From contig JAZUNB010000086.1 of NCBI GenBank assembly GCA_045603925.1, forward strand, positions 1 to 53,638: a DNA stretch of 53,638 nt, given 5' to 3'. Below are positions 5,347 through 9,512 of the stretch, piece after piece; position 1 is the stretch's first letter, and every line of letters starts with the position of its first letter. The notes below the pieces were generated by a model. The model ran no database searches. It saw only the letters and a program-made list of their open reading frames with translations, and was not told the origin of the DNA. The translations under genes and the position numbers were made by a program. This DNA comes from Eubacteriales bacterium (GTDB lineage: Bacteria > Bacillota > Clostridia > Oscillospirales > QAKW01).

Positions 5347-5378
5347 ATTTTCATCCCCCGTTCAAAGGAGTGAGAATT

Positions 5379-6350
5379 TTGATCGATTATGACCGCCTTC
5401 CGCAAACTTTAAAGGATTTTATTTTCTATTTAGAGGTTGTTTTGGGAAAATCCAAGTCAACTACCTATGAATATATTCTCGATCTTGAGAACTTTTTCCG
5501 TTATACCCGAATCAAAAAAGAAAAGCTCCCATCCGATACGAAGCTGCATGATGTTGCGATCCATGATCTTGATATTCCCTTTGTGGCATCCATTACCTTG
5601 CAGGATATCTACGATTATTTTTATTACTGCCGTGAGGTTCGTAAAAACGGTTCCCGCAGTATTTCCAGAAAAATGTCTTCCCTTCGTACTTATTTTAAGT
5701 ATATGACCCAGAAGATGCACCTTTTGAAGAATAACCCCATGGAGGGCGTTTCCACCCCTTCCCTGCCTAAAACCCTTCCCAAGCATCTGACTCTGGAGGA
5801 AAGCACAGAATTGCTGTCTGCTGTCAAAAAAAGTCGCAGAGATTATGCAATCCTTACGCTGTTTTTAAACTGCGGAATGCGCCTTGCAGAACTGGTTTCT
5901 CTGAATGTGAGCGATATTAAGAATGAGTACGCGGTGATCACCGGCAAAGGCAATAAACAGCGTACCATTCATTTAAATCAAGCCTGCCGCGATGCGGTAG
6001 ACGATTATCTGAACCACGAACGCCCCAAGGAAGGCTTGAAAGACCCGGAGGCACTGTTTATCAGCCGAAATAAGAGCCGTATTTCCCGTCGCGCGGTGCA
6101 GAATCTGGTTGAAAAATACCTGCATATTGCCGGTTTGGGCGACAAACACCTATCAACCCATAAGCTGCGGCATACAGCGGCAACCTTAATGCATCGCCAT
6201 GGCCATGTGGACATCCGCGTGCTTCAGGAAATTTTAGGCCATGAAAACCTCGGGACCACCCAGATTTATACCCATGTAGACAGCGAATCCATCAAAGAAG
6301 CATCCATCAGCAATCCCCTTTCTAAAATGAAACGAAAAAATATAGAATAA
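5379..6350 (+). CDS. Tyrosine site-specific recombinase, XerC/XerD family
   Basis: Catalytic pattern: GMRLAEL (R), HKLRHTAAT (HxxR), LGHENLGTTQIYTHV (H...Y). The GTG at 5370 overlaps the AAGGAG Shine-Dalgarno, so the TTG at 5379 is the more likely start. Confidence 0.8.
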   Translation: MIDYDRLPQTLKDFIFYLEVVLGKSKSTTYEYILDLENFFRYTRIKKEKLPSDTKLHDVAIHDLDIPFVASITLQDIYDYFYYCREVRKNGSRSISRKMSSLRTYFKYMTQKMHLLKNNPMEGVSTPSLPKTLPKHLTLEESTELLSAVKKSRRDYAILTLFLNCGMRLAELVSLNVSDIKNEYAVITGKGNKQRTIHLNQACRDAVDDYLNHERPKEGLKDPEALFISRNKSRISRRAVQNLVEKYLHIAGLGDKHLSTHKLRHTAATLMHRHGHVDIRVLQEILGHENLGTTQIYTHVDSESIKEASISNPLSKMKRKNIE

Positions 6351-6376
6351 GGCGCCGAAATCGGCGCCTTATTTTT
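6349..6376. terminator. Bidirectional terminator between convergent genes
   Basis: aaggcgccga-aa-tcggcgcctt followed by a T-rich run. The stem is flanked by A on one side and T on the other. Confidence 0.8.
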
Positions 6377-7433
6377 ATAGTATGATCAATTCTTTATTGG
6401 ATTTTGTCAGATTTTCATACCCATTTTCGGTAATATAAACCATATCCTCGATGCGAACCCCGAACTGATCCGAAAGATAGATCCCCGGCTCAACGGTGAT
6501 GACCATTCCCGGGGCGAGAACAGTCTCATCCGAGGTGTTAAAGCAAGGCTCTTCGTGGATCTCAATGCCAACGCTATGCCCCAAACCGTGGCCGAAACAG
6601 CCCTCATAGCCCTTGGAATTTATATAATTCCGCGCAGCCCCATCGATATCCTTACAGATCTTCCCCGGCGCAATAGCATCCAGCGCCTTTTGCTGCGCCG
6701 CCAGCACCGTCTCATATACTTCTCTTTGTTTGCTGCTCACCGGCCCGACCGCAACCGTTCGGGTCATATCGGAGCGATATCCCTTTACAACCGCTCCGAA
6801 ATCCATGGTAATGAAATCTCCCTTTTCGATCTTCTTATCGGTAGGAACTCCATGGGGCAACGAAGAGTTCTTACCGGAGACCACAATGAAGTCAAAGGAT
6901 ACCCCCTCGCTCCCCTGCTTTCGCAAAAAGAATTCCATGTCAAGCATAATTTCACGCTCGGTTTTTCCAGCGGAAATTTGCCCTAAAATGTATCCAAAGG
7001 TATCATCGGTAATCTTTTGCGCTTTTTTGATAAAACCAAGTTCTGCAGGCGTTTTAATGCTTCTCATGGCAAGGATCTTGCGATCAAGGCGAGGATCTTC
7101 CAAAATGCAACCGAAAATATCCTGATATCGGCTCTTTTCCGATACCGTCATACAGGAGGTCTCAATATAAACTGTTCGAACCGCATATTTCTTTGCCAAT
7201 TCCTTCAACTGATCCGAGGCTTTCTTGAGTAGCAAAACATTGCATACCGACACCGTCTTTACAGCCTTTTCATAATAGCGAAAATCAATCAAAAAATCCG
7301 CCGAGTTTTTAGTAACAAAAAGCACACCGGCAGAGGATTTGAAGTCGGTTAAATAAAGACGGTTGGCTCCGCTTGTTATAAGGACCCCTTCCCCGCTGTT
7401 TAAGTTTTTCTGCAATTTTTCGATTTTTGTCAT
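6375..7433 (-). CDS. Xaa-Pro aminopeptidase (M24 family)
   Basis: 352 aa with M24B metal ligand context: DFGAVVKGYRSDMTRT, GHGLGHSVGIEIHE and VITVEPGIY. Confidence 0.85.
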   Translation of the reverse strand: MTKIEKLQKNLNSGEGVLITSGANRLYLTDFKSSAGVLFVTKNSADFLIDFRYYEKAVKTVSVCNVLLLKKASDQLKELAKKYAVRTVYIETSCMTVSEKSRYQDIFGCILEDPRLDRKILAMRSIKTPAELGFIKKAQKITDDTFGYILGQISAGKTEREIMLDMEFFLRKQGSEGVSFDFIVVSGKNSSLPHGVPTDKKIEKGDFITMDFGAVVKGYRSDMTRTVAVGPVSSKQREVYETVLAAQQKALDAIAPGKICKDIDGAARNYINSKGYEGCFGHGLGHSVGIEIHEEPCFNTSDETVLAPGMVITVEPGIYLSDQFGVRIEDMVYITENGYENLTKSNKELIIL

Positions 7434-7436
7434 GGC

Positions 7437-8024
7437 TTAACTTTCCTTTGCTTTGCTCATTTTCAAATGTCTTTTATGCCAAATCTGCCGCATAATAACC
7501 ACAGATATGAGATATGCAATGCAAATAGTCATAGTATTGATCAAAAACAACCCCAAAATTTTTGGTAATAAAATGTAAGAAAAGATTTTCATGTTCAGCA
7601 ATAAGATTCCCGTAAAGGGAAACATTGCAAAGCCAAGGAATGACTGCACAGGCTCCGGGGCATTTATAAGCAGCAGTACGATATGTAAAAAATAATAGAG
7701 GGCTGTTGTAAGAATTATTGCAAGAATGTTACGCCGTTGTGTTAAATAAACATTTATGAGATCCTTAAAAAAGCCCGGCTTATTTGCTTTATATAAATTA
7801 AGGGATGCGATTCTATATGGTGAGTTGCGAAAGTGAATCATACACGCAAATACAATGGCAAATATAACCCAGATCACGATGTATGCCTCAAAATGAAACG
7901 ATATTCTTCCGGTATAGTCCGGAAAACTTGAAATGAAATAAAACCATATTGCAAACGGGAGCCCCAAAATCATATAGATTATTAAAGTGATGATTGAAGA
8001 AAACAACAGCCAGACGCAGATCAT
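7437..8024 (-). CDS. Hypothetical polytopic membrane protein (AT-rich gene)
   Basis: 195 aa with at least 5 hydrophobic spans and a GAGGGGAG RBS. I recognise no family. The stop lies 3 nt before the aminopeptidase start. Confidence 0.55.
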   Translation of the reverse strand: MICVWLLFSSIITLIIYMILGLPFAIWFYFISSFPDYTGRISFHFEAYIVIWVIFAIVFACMIHFRNSPYRIASLNLYKANKPGFFKDLINVYLTQRRNILAIILTTALYYFLHIVLLLINAPEPVQSFLGFAMFPFTGILLLNMKIFSYILLPKILGLFLINTMTICIAYLISVVIMRQIWHKRHLKMSKAKES

Positions 8025-8130
8025 CTTAAATCCACACTCCCCTCTCGTGCAATTAGATATAATGCAAGCAAATAATTAGGTAAAAGAATTAAGTTTTCGA
8101 AGCCAGGGCATCAAAACGCCGTTTTAAAGA

Positions 8131-8159
8131 ATTATAGCATAAAAGCGGTGGAGTGGCAA
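8131..8159 (-). promoter_or_regulatory. Sigma-A promoter with extended -10 for the membrane-protein gene
   Basis: The minus strand reads TTGCCA (8154-8159), a 17 nt spacer, then TGCTATAAT (-10 at 8131-8136). Confidence 0.65.
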
Positions 8160-8165
8160 GTTATT

Positions 8166-8338
8166 AGTGATATTCTGTGCTTCGCACAGAGTGATATTTT
8201 CACTTCGTGAAAGTGATATTAAAACCTACGGTTTTAGTGATATTATATTCGCCTTTTAACTGCCCGAAGGGCAATATCACTCGGCGTTAGCCGAATATCA
8301 CTGCGAAGCAATATCACTCGCCGAAGGCGAATATAACT
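8166..8338. repeat. Mosaic array: 4 direct AGTGATATT followed by 4 inverted AATATCACT, every gap a different mini-hairpin
   Basis: AGTGATATT at 8166, 8190, 8212 and 8236. AATATCACT at 8273, 8294 and 8310, and AATATAACT at 8330. Gap hairpins: ctgtgc-ttc-gcacag, ttcac-ttc-gtgaa, aaaacc-tac-ggtttt, tgccc-gaa-gggca, cggc-gtta-gccg, gc-gaa-gc, cgcc-gaa-ggcg. Confidence 0.9.
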
Positions 8339-8340
8339 AA

Positions 8341-8373
8341 AAAACTCTTGTTCTTTCGAACAAGAGTTTTTTT
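8341..8373 (-). terminator. Intrinsic terminator of the lipoprotein gene
   Basis: aaaactcttgttc-tttc-gaacaagagtttt, flanked by A and T runs on both sides. Confidence 0.8.
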
Positions 8374-8433
8374 GGGAGTTTTGAACTTAATGACACGAAT
8401 AAAAAGCGCCTGAAAACCGAGGATTTTCTTTAT

Positions 8434-8994
8434 TTATTCGAATTTGTTTTCAATTGGCTCGCTAAATTCGAATCTTATAATTTTTATTCCAAAATATTTT
8501 CCAAGTTGCTCATAACTCAATTCTGTAAATTCAACCTTTGAAGTGTTATCAGATACTTTATAAGTTTCAGAATAATTTATATACGGATGCTTATCTTTGT
8601 AATTGGGGTCACCAAGATAATATCCACCGTGACCATAATATAGAATTACTCTTGATTCCGTATTGATTCTTCCTTTAACAAGCATAGATTCCGTATTGGG
8701 TTCAAACTCAATAAATAATCTTTTGGATTCATCGCCACTTTCTAAAGATGCATCCCAAGAACGTGAATATGGAAACCCAAATATCGCAAAATTATTTGAC
8801 ATATCATATCCGTCATAAGTACAAACTACTGTATCTTCGATTAAATATCTTTCACCATTCATTTCATATTCTAAAATAAATGGAAATTTGCCTTCTGTTA
8901 TTTTAGGTGCAGGCTCATATCTTTCCTTGCAACCAGAAAAACAAAATATCATTAAAACAACAATACCTATTGAAAGCAATTTCTTCATAATCAT
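8434..8994 (-). CDS. Hypothetical lipoprotein (AT-rich gene)
   Basis: Signal peptide with lipobox: MIMKKLLSIGIVVLMIFCFSGC. The mature part matches no family I recognise. The 225 aa ORF in the track over-extends into the upstream repeat array. The start could instead be 8988. Confidence 0.6.
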   Translation of the reverse strand: MIMKKLLSIGIVVLMIFCFSGCKERYEPAPKITEGKFPFILEYEMNGERYLIEDTVVCTYDGYDMSNNFAIFGFPYSRSWDASLESGDESKRLFIEFEPNTESMLVKGRINTESRVILYYGHGGYYLGDPNYKDKHPYINYSETYKVSDNTSKVEFTELSYEQLGKYFGIKIIRFEFSEPIENKFE

Positions 8995-9009
8995 CACCGC
9001 CTTGGATTT

Positions 9010-9018
9010 ATTATAGCA
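9010..9018 (-). promoter_or_regulatory. Extended -10 element for the lipoprotein gene
   Basis: The minus strand reads TGCTATAAT, 15 nt upstream of the ATG at 8994. The -35 is poor. Confidence 0.45.
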
Positions 9019-9033
9019 TAAAAACGGTAATTT

Positions 9034-9196
9034 GTATGTAATCCGCAACTTGTTGCGGAATGTAATCCACCGTAGGTGGTATGTAATCAATCCGAAGGAA
9101 GAAACATACAAAGCTCACGCTTTGATAACATACAGTTCGCAAGGCGAACTGACTACATACGCCTATCGGCGATTACATACCAATCCTTCGGATTGG
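9034..9196. repeat. Mosaic array: GTATGTAATC-type direct units followed by GATTACATAC-type inverted units with unique mini-hairpins
   Basis: ATGTAATC at 9036, 9060 and 9081. ACATAC at 9104, 9128, 9155 and 9175, with the full GATTACATAC at 9171-9180. Hairpins: cgcaac-tt-gttgcg, cacc-gtag-gtgg, tcc-gaa-gga, aagc-tcac-gctt, agttcgc-aag-gcgaact, gcc-tatc-ggc, ccaatcc-ttc-ggattgg. Confidence 0.85.
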
Positions 9197-9200
9197 ATAA

Positions 9201-9233
9201 AAAATAAGACAGTCTTCGGACTGTCTTATTTTT
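9201..9233 (-). terminator. Terminator of the tRNA operon (bidirectional shape)
   Basis: taagacagtc-ttcg-gactgtctta, flanked by AAAA and TTTTTT. Confidence 0.8.
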
Positions 9234-9308
9234 TGGAGGTGCCAATCGGATTTGAACCGATGAATAAAGGTTTTGCAGACCTTGGCCTTACCACTTGGCT
9301 ATGGCACC
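9234..9308 (-). tRNA. tRNA-Cys (GCA)
   Basis: The minus strand reads GGTGCCATAGCCAAGTGGTAAGGC...CTGCAAA...GGTTCAAATCC...TGGCACCTCCA. The cloverleaf was checked by hand and the CCA is encoded. Confidence 0.9.
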
Positions 9309-9313
9309 GTATG

Positions 9314-9346
9314 AGAAAAGGTATATGAGTTCCATATACCTTTTCT
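9314..9346 (-). other. Inter-tRNA stem-loop (possible processing signal)
   Basis: A 13-14 bp perfect stem, gaaaaggtatatg / catataccttttc, with a 5 nt loop, lying between tRNA-Phe and tRNA-Cys. Confidence 0.5.
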
Positions 9347-9353
9347 TTATGAA

Positions 9354-9429
9354 TGGTGCCTCCGGGCGGAATCGAACCACCGACACGGGGATTTTCAGTC
9401 CCCTGCTCTACCAACTGAGCTACAGAGGC
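9354..9429 (-). tRNA. tRNA-Phe (GAA)
   Basis: The minus strand reads GCCTCTGTAGCTCAGTTGGTAGAGC...ACTGAAAAT...GGTTCGATTCC...GGAGGCACCA. Confidence 0.9.
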
Positions 9430-9435
9430 AACAAG

Positions 9436-9512
9436 TGGCGACCCGGATGGGGCTCGAACCCACGACCTCTAGCGTGACAGGCTAGCGTTCTAACCAACTG
9501 AACTACCGGGCC
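9436..9512 (-). tRNA. tRNA-Asp (GTC)
   Basis: The minus strand reads GGCCCGGTAGTTCAGTTGGTTAGAAC, then anticodon stem CTAGC, loop CTGTCAC and stem GCTAG, then GGTTCGAGCCC...CCGGGTCGCCA. Confidence 0.9.

Follow-up and report, generated by a model that had tools for sequence, protein, structure and literature searches.

What is the mosaic of short repeated units and tiny hairpins that separates a tRNA operon from a lipoprotein-like gene in the genome of an Eubacteriales bacterium (contig JAZUNB010000086.1 of assembly GCA_045603925.1, positions 1 to 53,638, called the window below)? Is it the gene of a small RNA (sRNA), a selfish repeat, a transcription insulator, a recombination site, or a piece of DNA that is read in its folded state? 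An earlier note, made from the sequence alone, had seen two such arrays, at 8166-8338 (array 1) and 9034-9196 (array 2), the second with a different unit but the same grammar and placement, and all three points hold. Judged from its sequence, array 2 belongs, as a copy of type A, to a family of intergenic elements with two arms, and the Rfam motif Gut-1 is one arm of a sister type.

Array 2 occupies positions 9034-9198 and consists of 3 + 4 copies of the unit GTATGTAATC/GATTACATAC, spaced by seven unique perfect mini-hairpins. Checked letter by letter, the coordinates given for it previously are all correct: ATGTAATC occurs at 9036, 9060 and 9081 (with GTATGTAATC at 9034 and 9079), the ACATAC core at 9104, 9128, 9155 and 9175, the full GATTACATAC at 9171-9180, and each of the seven gaps is the mini-hairpin that had been read there. 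The flanks are also as described, with the tRNA-Cys terminator on one side and an extended -10 on the other. On both strands of the window, the 8-mer ATGTAATC is found six times against 1.87 +/- 1.3 expected, a number reached in none of 100 shuffles, and four of these six copies fall within one 145-nt stretch of array 2. Folding of a 172-208-nt region on both strands gave, relative to shuffles, z = -10.1 and -9.4 with RNA parameters, and z = -8.5 and -6.3 with DNA parameters, with seven local hairpins in the structure. The centre of the array is an inverted partial copy of its outermost hairpin (hp0) and reads TCCTTCGGATTG on the minus strand, while hp0 itself is invariant across the nine closest homologues of array 2. 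The dimensions do not suit a CRISPR (clustered regularly interspaced short palindromic repeats) array, a candidate that was rejected: the units are 10 nt long, the spacers are palindromes of 7-17 nt and the units invert at the centre, whereas CRISPR repeats measure 23-50 nt and are separated by non-palindromic spacers of ~30 nt.

The array is not a private feature of this contig: it lies at the same site in two relatives (L002 and L015, in the numbering of loci used here), and the same lineage occurs behind other tRNAs or genes in many metagenome contigs. The family was surveyed by one metagenome scan with the pattern TT + ATCCA + hp0 + YATRT, to which loci from Hsp33-anchored relatives were added, giving at least 126 unique arrays, at least 87 of them complete; all family figures refer to the matches listed. 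The Hsp33-anchored loci place the window in an uncultured gut lineage of Eubacteriales/Clostridia. The 87 complete arrays divide into 21 of type A (unit GTATGTAATC) and 66 of type B (unit GTATATCATC), and array 2 fits their plan: ATCCA and hp0 right after the T-run, GTATRTMATC units with perfect hairpins, a centre complementing hp0, and inverted units. It parses into three full and one truncated forward units, the 12-nt centre complement and three reverse units. The units of the right half, which had looked decayed, mostly vary in a way that is conserved position by position: homologous arrays of other genomes have the third variant and the truncated fourth unit in the same places; the minus-strand unit GTATGTAGTC is common only to the window and its L002 orthologue. 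The promoter-proximal hairpins (cgcaacaagttgcg and cacctacggtg) recur in L002, L015, L128 and L173, and the L002 orthologue differs by loop changes (GATA to GTTA, GTGA to GTAA).

Several regularities run through the family. Both arms carry the same unit type in 86/87 complete arrays, with equal position weights for forward units and reverse-complemented reverse units, and the number of modules varies (2-6 forward, 2-8 reverse) through tandem duplication. Spacing is 17-37 nt in the forward arm and 21-26 nt in the reverse arm; phased protein sites on duplex DNA were rejected on the lack of helical periodicity in the forward arm. A perfect terminal stem of at least 4 bp is present in 75% of 198 unique spacers, as compared with 3.4% of shuffles, and stem pairs are 97% Watson-Crick (G-T 0.7%, A-C 0.9%). 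Among the nine closest homologues of array 2, 98.2% of cells are paired, and five pairs (15 cells) have changed on both sides, a result reached by 0/500 shuffles, slid alignments giving at most 37% paired cells. The loops are strand-specific: read on the unit-sense strand (GTAT...), 85 of 180 hairpins have a G(N)NA loop and only one the complementary T(N)NC, the closing pair being 5'C-G3' in 133 of the 180. In both arms this polarity follows the sense of the unit, and the favoured strand therefore switches at the centre. In 65 of the 87 complete arrays, at least 10 nt of hp0 have an exact complement in the centre, and the centre changes in step with hp0 variants (GAA/TTC, GAAA/TTTC, GCA/TGC, GACA/TGTC), while in L001- and L202-type arrays, which have no hp0, it complements a terminator arm instead. 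Searches of plasmid and phage collections with the array (blastn) gave no match. A viral scan for three GTGATATT units returned 76 matches, many of them in contigs of giant-virus metagenome-assembled genomes, which look like ordinary tandem repeats and were not used; four viral matches to the hp0 pattern were tRNA-flank host DNA or chance.

Array 1 connects this family to Gut-1. The Rfam model RF01706 (Gut-1), the sole non-tRNA Rfam match in the window, matches array 1 on both strands, with 62.5 bits on the minus strand (8269-8339) and 48.6 bits on the plus strand (8165-8248), the latter below the 50-bit gathering threshold; because of these two matches, array 1 reads as two opposed Gut-1 motifs, the model spanning one of its two arms. 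In the original Gut-1 alignment (PMC2864571) the flanking sequence is arranged in the same order: stop codon or tRNA, then terminator, GUGAUAUU units, centre and AUAUCAC units. The inverted second arm is thus visible there too, and the Rfam motif is one arm of such an element. Gut-1 had been reported as "human gut only" and without a function (Weinberg et al. 2010, PMC2864571). Orthologues of array 1 are found in L158 and L223. One contig of the Gut-1 seed alignment (BAAZ01000130.1; PMC2864571, supplementary) has four Gut-1 matches at 240-nt steps, and whole arrays can therefore repeat in tandem.

Array 2 resembles Gut-1 in having a short conserved unit with three variable, covarying hairpins between units, in its position after a stop codon or after a tRNA and terminator, and in its occurrence in gut Clostridia. 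It differs in the unit itself, GUAUGUAAUC replacing GUGAWAU: its units are GTATGTAATC/GATTACATAC and not the four single-stranded GUGAWAU units of Gut-1. Accordingly, a cmscan of 8000-9300 at E<=10 matched array 1 only and nothing at 9034-9198, and in 12 related loci Rfam returned nothing but tRNAs at gathering threshold, with no family for the relatives of array 2. The structural correspondence between the two arrays that the earlier note had raised exists at the level of the plan, as both run from a palindromic terminator through about four units with hairpins, a centre inverting the first hairpin and about three to four inverted units with hairpins to a promoter. It does not go as far as superposition: the strands bearing the G(N)NA loops converge on the centre in array 2 and diverge in array 1 and Gut-1-type arrays. 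The coupling of unit sense and loop sense is nevertheless the same in Gut-1-type arrays (ATATCAC-sense units carry G(N)NA loops, 7/7 in array 1), and it is their arms that have the reversed arrangement relative to terminator and promoter. Beside both arrays lies a 19-nt stretch (8131-8149 and 9010-9028, 18/19 identical) that is the spacer and extended -10 of a minus-strand promoter. For array 1 this promoter reads TTGCCA-17-TGCTATAAT at 8159-8131 (11/12 positions plus TG), and the same promoter subtype also stands behind arrays of other unit types (L001, L002, L006, L158, L223), showing modular reshuffling.

How would such an array act? Our preferred explanation, which the sequence patterns make possible rather than probable, is an exchangeable terminator-array-promoter module in which a factor specific for the unit would read the units and C-G(N)NA-G hairpins on the DNA in its folded or extruded state, the PF05635 protein described below being the only candidate seen. 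The arrays alternate AT-rich units of 10-12 nt with GC-rich perfect mini-hairpins, and each module displays a sequence-specific unit beside a C-G(N)NA-G mini-hairpin on one defined strand, the two arms doing so on opposite strands. They would act as folded single-stranded or extruded DNA, not as a classical sRNA.

Is the acting nucleic acid DNA or RNA? The rival explanation is a structured, Gut-1-like sRNA, made by tRNA read-through and/or as a divergent transcript ending at a bidirectional terminator, whose single-stranded units bind a protein or pair with the other arm. Array 1 matches Gut-1 on both strands, Gut-1 was rated an RNA with covariation by its authors (PMC2864571), array 2 folds strongly as RNA with covarying hairpins, and some loops of the family are GNRA or CUUG. 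The terminator could act in both directions, because its palindrome has an A-run before and a T-run after it, and such a symmetric terminator could stop a transcript crossing the array. Yet the array sits between this terminator and a promoter firing away from it: on the gene strand it follows a strong terminator and precedes a promoter, and for the other strand no promoter is evident. The dominant loops are C-GNA-G triloops and non-GNRA GNNA tetraloops, which are especially stable in DNA and not in RNA; GCGNAGC and GCGNNAGC are "mini-hairpin DNA" motifs whose RNA versions are far less stable (PMC13037366; PMC3201870). As loop polarity flips at the centre, one transcript would hold the favoured loops in one arm only. 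Pairing between forward and reverse units was rejected as the main constraint, since their variants keep to particular positions (GTATGKYATC as third forward unit, GATTACATTC as a reverse unit) without matching changes in the opposite arm. G-U pairs, at about 1%, are not above A-C, and because both stand at about 1%, the asymmetry that might have revealed a transcribed strand allows none to be called. Taken together, the near absence of G-U pairs, the C-GNA-G triloops and the polarity flip make us lean against an expressed-RNA role for array 2, action at the level of DNA being somewhat more likely than action as RNA; the sRNA reading is unlikely.

Hairpins of this kind are known to be recognised as DNA. 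Those of RSF1010 ssiA, the phage G4 origin and the phage N4 promoters are bound by proteins, and primases and the N4 RNA polymerase read mini-hairpins together with adjacent single-stranded sequence (PMC13037366; PMC3201870). The likeness of the arrays to these sites lies in the C-G(N)NA-G hairpin, hp0 even containing the CCGAAGG of ssiA (PMC13037366); the sites of RSF1010, G4 and the N4 early promoters are, however, single sites in phage or plasmid origins and promoters, whereas the arrays carry hairpins in both orientations in chromosomal intergenic DNA and are known here from sequence. Another example is the target site of diversity-generating retroelements (DGRs), which needs a GC-rich DNA hairpin with a free stem sequence and a strand-specific GRNA loop, Avd being named as a possible loop contact (Guo et al. 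2011, PMC3240598). The arrays share with it the GC-rich hairpin with a free stem, a strand-specific loop starting with G and ending with A, and a PF05635-like protein. They differ in that the DGR site has a single 7-10-bp hairpin, its GRNA loop 4 nt long, beside a variable repeat and with a reverse transcriptase, whereas an array has seven or eight hairpins of 4-7 bp, mostly with triloops, alternating with repeated units, and no reverse transcriptase or template/variable repeats were seen nearby.

Where does the module sit, and how does it get there? In 39 of the 87 arrays (62 have enough flank) a same-strand tRNA gene lies within 75 nt upstream, and 19 tRNA species are represented. The same palindromic terminator and array follow different tRNAs, homologous terminators accompany homologous arrays elsewhere, and in L181 two arrays lie head to head and share one terminator, so that the terminator belongs to the module. 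At the distal end the partial unit TTGAT forms a -35 box, and TTGATT-N17-TATAAT is found in 29 of the arrays listed (L002 and L015 included), 22 of them with TG. Palindromic terminator, array and outward promoter travel together as a module, lodging directly 3' of intrinsic terminators, chiefly of tRNA operons, and being swapped, gained and lost among related genomes. At the tRNA-Cys/pepP site, L004, L007 and L016 have the terminator only, L015 has terminator, type A array and promoter with no cassette, in L001 (95% Hsp33 identity) both the terminator and the array are different ones (the unit being ATTCATTATTCATT), the array of L006 has the unit GATGAAATC, and L019 has a type B array there and a type A array elsewhere. 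The whole interval from tRNA-Cys to the Xaa-Pro aminopeptidase gene (window 6375-9234; L001-L019) is hypervariable, with 0 to ~5 kb of unrelated genes among relatives of 75-95% Hsp33 identity, and in array-less genomes the aminopeptidase start codon comes only ~25 nt past the tRNA terminator.

Smaller traces of module traffic were observed as well. The terminator palindrome has the loop CGAA in the window (9199-9234) and TTCG in L015 (2473-2508), the loop or the whole palindrome having been inverted. In L002 (7866-7895) a "solo" after a terminator, ATCCAATCC-ACA-GGATTGG followed by ATTGATTT, comprises both element ends and no units, while L012 has ATTGATTT alone behind the tRNA-Cys terminator. 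In L225 (17-200) a type A array ends after two units, and the last 20 nt of a tRNA, a terminator and an entire type B array follow on from it; either recombination made this junction or it is a chimera of metagenome assembly. Other unit types (GTGAAGTT, AACATCATT, AATGAATAAT) occur in short arrays beside type A or B arrays or behind the four-helix-bundle gene discussed below (L239 860-970, L208, L124), and different array types therefore cluster together.

Much of this would also suit a selfish, non-autonomous element, either a miniature inverted-repeat transposable element (MITE) or one of REPIN or BIME type, whose units are sites for a transposase encoded elsewhere and whose terminator and promoter are passengers or by-products; this explanation overlaps in part with the preferred one. 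The arrays have inverted ends, ATCCA + G(N)NA hairpin against (in reverse complement) ATCA + GAA hairpin, which are similar but short and themselves partial units. They are also multi-copy (three copies in 2 kb in L036, besides the pair in L181), their presence is polymorphic at one site, as for MITEs, and their modules grow by tandem duplication (L231, L133, L167). Near-identical arrays occur in distant hosts (L005 and L036, with Hsp33 only ~44-79% identical to that of the window), and the contigs that carry the type A PF05635 protein P0049, 10/10 among the matches listed, begin within or just upstream of an array or its tRNA. However, no transposase was seen beside the arrays and no target-site duplication, the T-runs on both sides (TTTTT|ATCCA...TTGAT|TT) being indistinguishable from a terminator tail and no empty and filled sites forming a closely matched pair. 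Copies that keep architecture and units differ in hairpin sequence, which is not typical of MITEs or REPs, the unrelated unit types built to one architecture would call for several cognate transposases, and orphan arrays are conserved as well as protein-linked ones. A selfish element of this kind is rather improbable.

The arrays also differ from known bacterial repeats. In the proteobacterial REP, BIME and REPIN elements, the palindrome is conserved in sequence and recognised by a RAYT transposase. The arrays resemble them in being extragenic, 3' of genes and terminators, multi-copy, built of opposed palindromes with linkers and mosaic in module number, whereas here it is the linkers (the units) that are conserved, the palindromes varying freely, with no RAYT seen beside the arrays. 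Copies of pneumococcal BOX and Neisseria Correia elements are near-identical in sequence. These too are small structured intergenic elements, with variable module number, that can bring promoters or terminators to their neighbours, but their sequences and hosts are unrelated and they have neither the unit/hairpin alternation nor strand-specific loops.

Could the arrays instead be structure-specific recombination sites, comparable to integron attC, that bound gene cassettes in a hotspot beside tRNA genes? The unrelated small genes in the tRNA-Cys/pepP interval of close relatives (0 to ~5 kb) have arrays at their cassette boundaries, L036 has three array-plus-gene cassettes in a row, and structure is conserved where sequence varies. 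Sites of attC type are likewise imperfect palindromes defined by structure, found at cassette boundaries and read on one folded strand. They differ in lacking an internal repeat architecture, while the arrays have neither R/L core boxes nor an integron integrase, and arrays also stand singly, without cassettes (L015). The sole nearby tyrosine recombinase (5370-6350) is Xer-like; nine related loci, array-less ones included, have it too, with 72-88% identity. An integron-like or array-specific recombinase was rejected for this gene, as its best scores are those for XerC/XerD, its score as an integron integrase lies far under the cutoff, and array-less genomes have it in synteny. Recombination sites of this kind are very unlikely.

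A fourth possibility is a passive, two-way transcription insulator, in which GC-rich hairpins and A/U-rich units reinforce the main terminator and insulate the tRNA operon from the gene that follows, and vice versa. Arrays always adjoin an intrinsic terminator and are strongly enriched behind highly expressed tRNA operons, and a two-armed layout would serve both directions. Several hairpin-plus-unit modules of both window arrays pass a simple terminator scan; in array 2 these are two inner modules (9151-9133 and 9124-9109, minus strand), which pass at lax settings with tails of TATGTT type. The units are not U-tracts, and a GC-rich hairpin followed by a U-tract is found only in the flanking hairpin 9199-9234. 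An insulator would also leave unexplained why units are identical within an array and different between arrays, why loops are strand-specific, why the centre copies the first hairpin and why unit type tracks the subfamily of the downstream protein. It is decidedly unlikely.

This protein is where the preferred explanation, a module read on folded DNA, finds its candidate reader. Of 60 recognisable downstream open reading frames, 22 encode a protein of ~115-120 aa of PF05635 (23S rRNA intervening-sequence protein) and TIGR02436 (four helix bundle protein); ~37 genes are found by tblastn, and the gene is present at ~40% of arrays. Its sequence matches PDB 2RLD, and a moderate-confidence model matches the fold of 2RLD and 2GSC and, more weakly, that of the DGR protein Avd (4DWL/8UB7, E about 0.08-0.15); homology of PF05635 and Avd has been stated (PMC10053308). 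Type A arrays are followed by protein subfamily A (6/6) and type B arrays by subfamily B (~30/30 of the arrays listed), members of one subfamily being 80-84% identical and those of different subfamilies 62%. Behind an array with a CT-rich unit (L202) and one with the unit AACATCGTTT (L132) lie two more subfamilies (45% identity), so that four protein subfamilies go with four unit types. Since units are homogeneous within an array and unrelated between array types, a reader would have to change with the lineage. The PF05635 gene is the only conserved gene of the module, and its subfamily changes with the unit type, which makes the protein the most likely reader. The units would then be read by the Avd-like four-helix-bundle protein encoded behind many arrays, and the consequence of binding could be autoregulation, insulation behind very active tRNA operons, or spread of the module. 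The P0049 contigs mentioned above start 125-640 nt upstream of this gene, as a repeat would lead one to expect.

Several points weigh against this explanation. The co-variation of protein and unit could be the simple co-inheritance of tightly linked DNA. There is no PF05635 gene in the 53-kb window, most arrays precede other genes, and no PF05635 gene has been seen so far beside Gut-1-type arrays. With 4-7 bp, the stems are short for a cruciform to extrude from a duplex, GNRA loops, which are stable in RNA, are among the G(N)NA loops, and the scarcity of G-U pairs would also be expected if RNAs of both strands must fold; Gut-1 itself was rated "certainly" an RNA, with covariation (Weinberg et al., PMC2864571). 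A transposase, a target duplication or an element-specific recombinase was not found. Lastly, the scan pattern fixes the T-run, hp0 and the unit start, so that terminator adjacency is partly built in (tRNA enrichment and downstream genes are not), and many contigs of the census come from phylogenetically related organisms.

What does the copy in the window do? It is an orphan: there is no PF05635 gene in 53 kb, and the final hairpin and the TTGATT -35 box of its L002 orthologue have been deleted, its last unit abutting AAATTACCGTTTTTATGCTATAAT. Read on the minus strand, the promoter-proximal arm runs through GATTACATAC, a loop TAC, GATTACATTC, a loop CAAG and GATTACATAC, and then through ACCGTTTTTATGCTATAAT and a ribosome-binding site into the lipoprotein-like gene. 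Its visible local effect is to part the tRNA operon from this gene and to supply it with an extended -10. The coordinates of the features are collected in the following table.

Features of array 2, its neighbours and its sister element in the window
Feature	Positions	Strand	Description
tRNA-Cys/Phe/Asp	9234-9512	minus	operon order Asp-Phe-Cys
Terminator of the tRNA Asp-Phe-Cys operon	9199-9234	minus	perfect 16+16 palindrome, A-run ahead and T-run behind
Outermost hairpin hp0	9180-9198	minus	ATCCAATCC-GAA-GGATTGG; conserved left end of the element family
Terminator-proximal arm, units	9101-9180	minus	GTATGTAATC 9171-9180, GTATGTAGTC 9151-9160, GTATGTTATC 9124-9133, truncated GTATGTTTC 9101-9109
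Terminator-proximal arm, hairpins		minus	9161-9170 loop GATA; 9134-9150 loop CTT; 9110-9123 loop GTGA
Centre	9088-9100		CAATCCGAAGGA (9088-9099), exact 12-nt complement of TCCTTCGGATTG in hp0 (9184-9195)
Promoter-proximal arm, units	9034-9088	plus	GTATGTAATC 9034-9043, GAATGTAATC 9058-9067, GTATGTAATC 9079-9088
Promoter-proximal arm, hairpins		plus	9044-9057 loop CTTG; 9068-9078 loop GTA
Promoter remnant	9010-9028	minus	ACCGTTTTTATGCTATAAT; ATTATAGCA at 9010-9018 is the extended -10 TGCTATAAT on the minus strand
Downstream gene	8434-8991	minus	185-aa protein with lipoprotein-type signal peptide MKKLLSIGIVVLMIFCFSGC
Sister element, array 1	8131-8372	minus	terminator 8339-8372; Gut-1 arm 8269-8339; centre; inverted Gut-1 arm 8165-8248; promoter 8159-8131

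The 185-aa lipoprotein-like protein matches no Pfam or NCBIfam family, and exact-sequence look-ups of the Hsp33, membrane protein and lipoprotein of the window found no record. Its gene contains an exact 12-nt direct repeat (GATTCCGTATTG, twice, 33 nt apart, at 8654-8698), which is probably a small in-frame duplication. The unit GTATGTAATC resembles the XerD-binding arm of the Firmicutes dif site (TTATGTAAAC; 8/10 positions), a likeness that chance could produce in an AT-rich 10-mer.

The two-armed family of array 2 is thus a widespread and so far undescribed relative of Gut-1, no description of these arrays having been found in the literature on Gut-1 and on PF05635/TIGR02436. Gut-1, listed by Rfam from 2010 onwards as a "gut-only" orphan RNA with no known role, becomes half of a two-armed element and one of at least five unit types of a common architecture, and the signatures of this family (perfect palindromes, and strand-specific C-G(N)NA-G loops with a change of strand at the centre) suit folded DNA better than an sRNA. 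For the abundant uncultured gut Clostridia that carry it, a common terminator-array-promoter module rewires the downstream flank of tRNA operons, and it accounts for the assembly breaks at these sites. In its widest form, which we hold to be doubtful, the explanation would extend to all unit-hairpin arrays, Gut-1 included: they would be not sRNAs but nucleic-acid platforms of stand-alone Avd-like PF05635 proteins, each subfamily reading its own 10-nt unit beside C-G(N)NA-G DNA mini-hairpins, and protein gene and array would together be a hitherto unrecognised exchangeable module colonising the 3' flank of tRNA operons, in the way that 23S rRNA intervening sequences house relatives of the protein. 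The pairing of unit type and subfamily offers a candidate ligand for the very large PF05635/TIGR02436 family, whose only member with an assigned role is Avd of the diversity-generating retroelements, the target sites of which need a similar hairpin.

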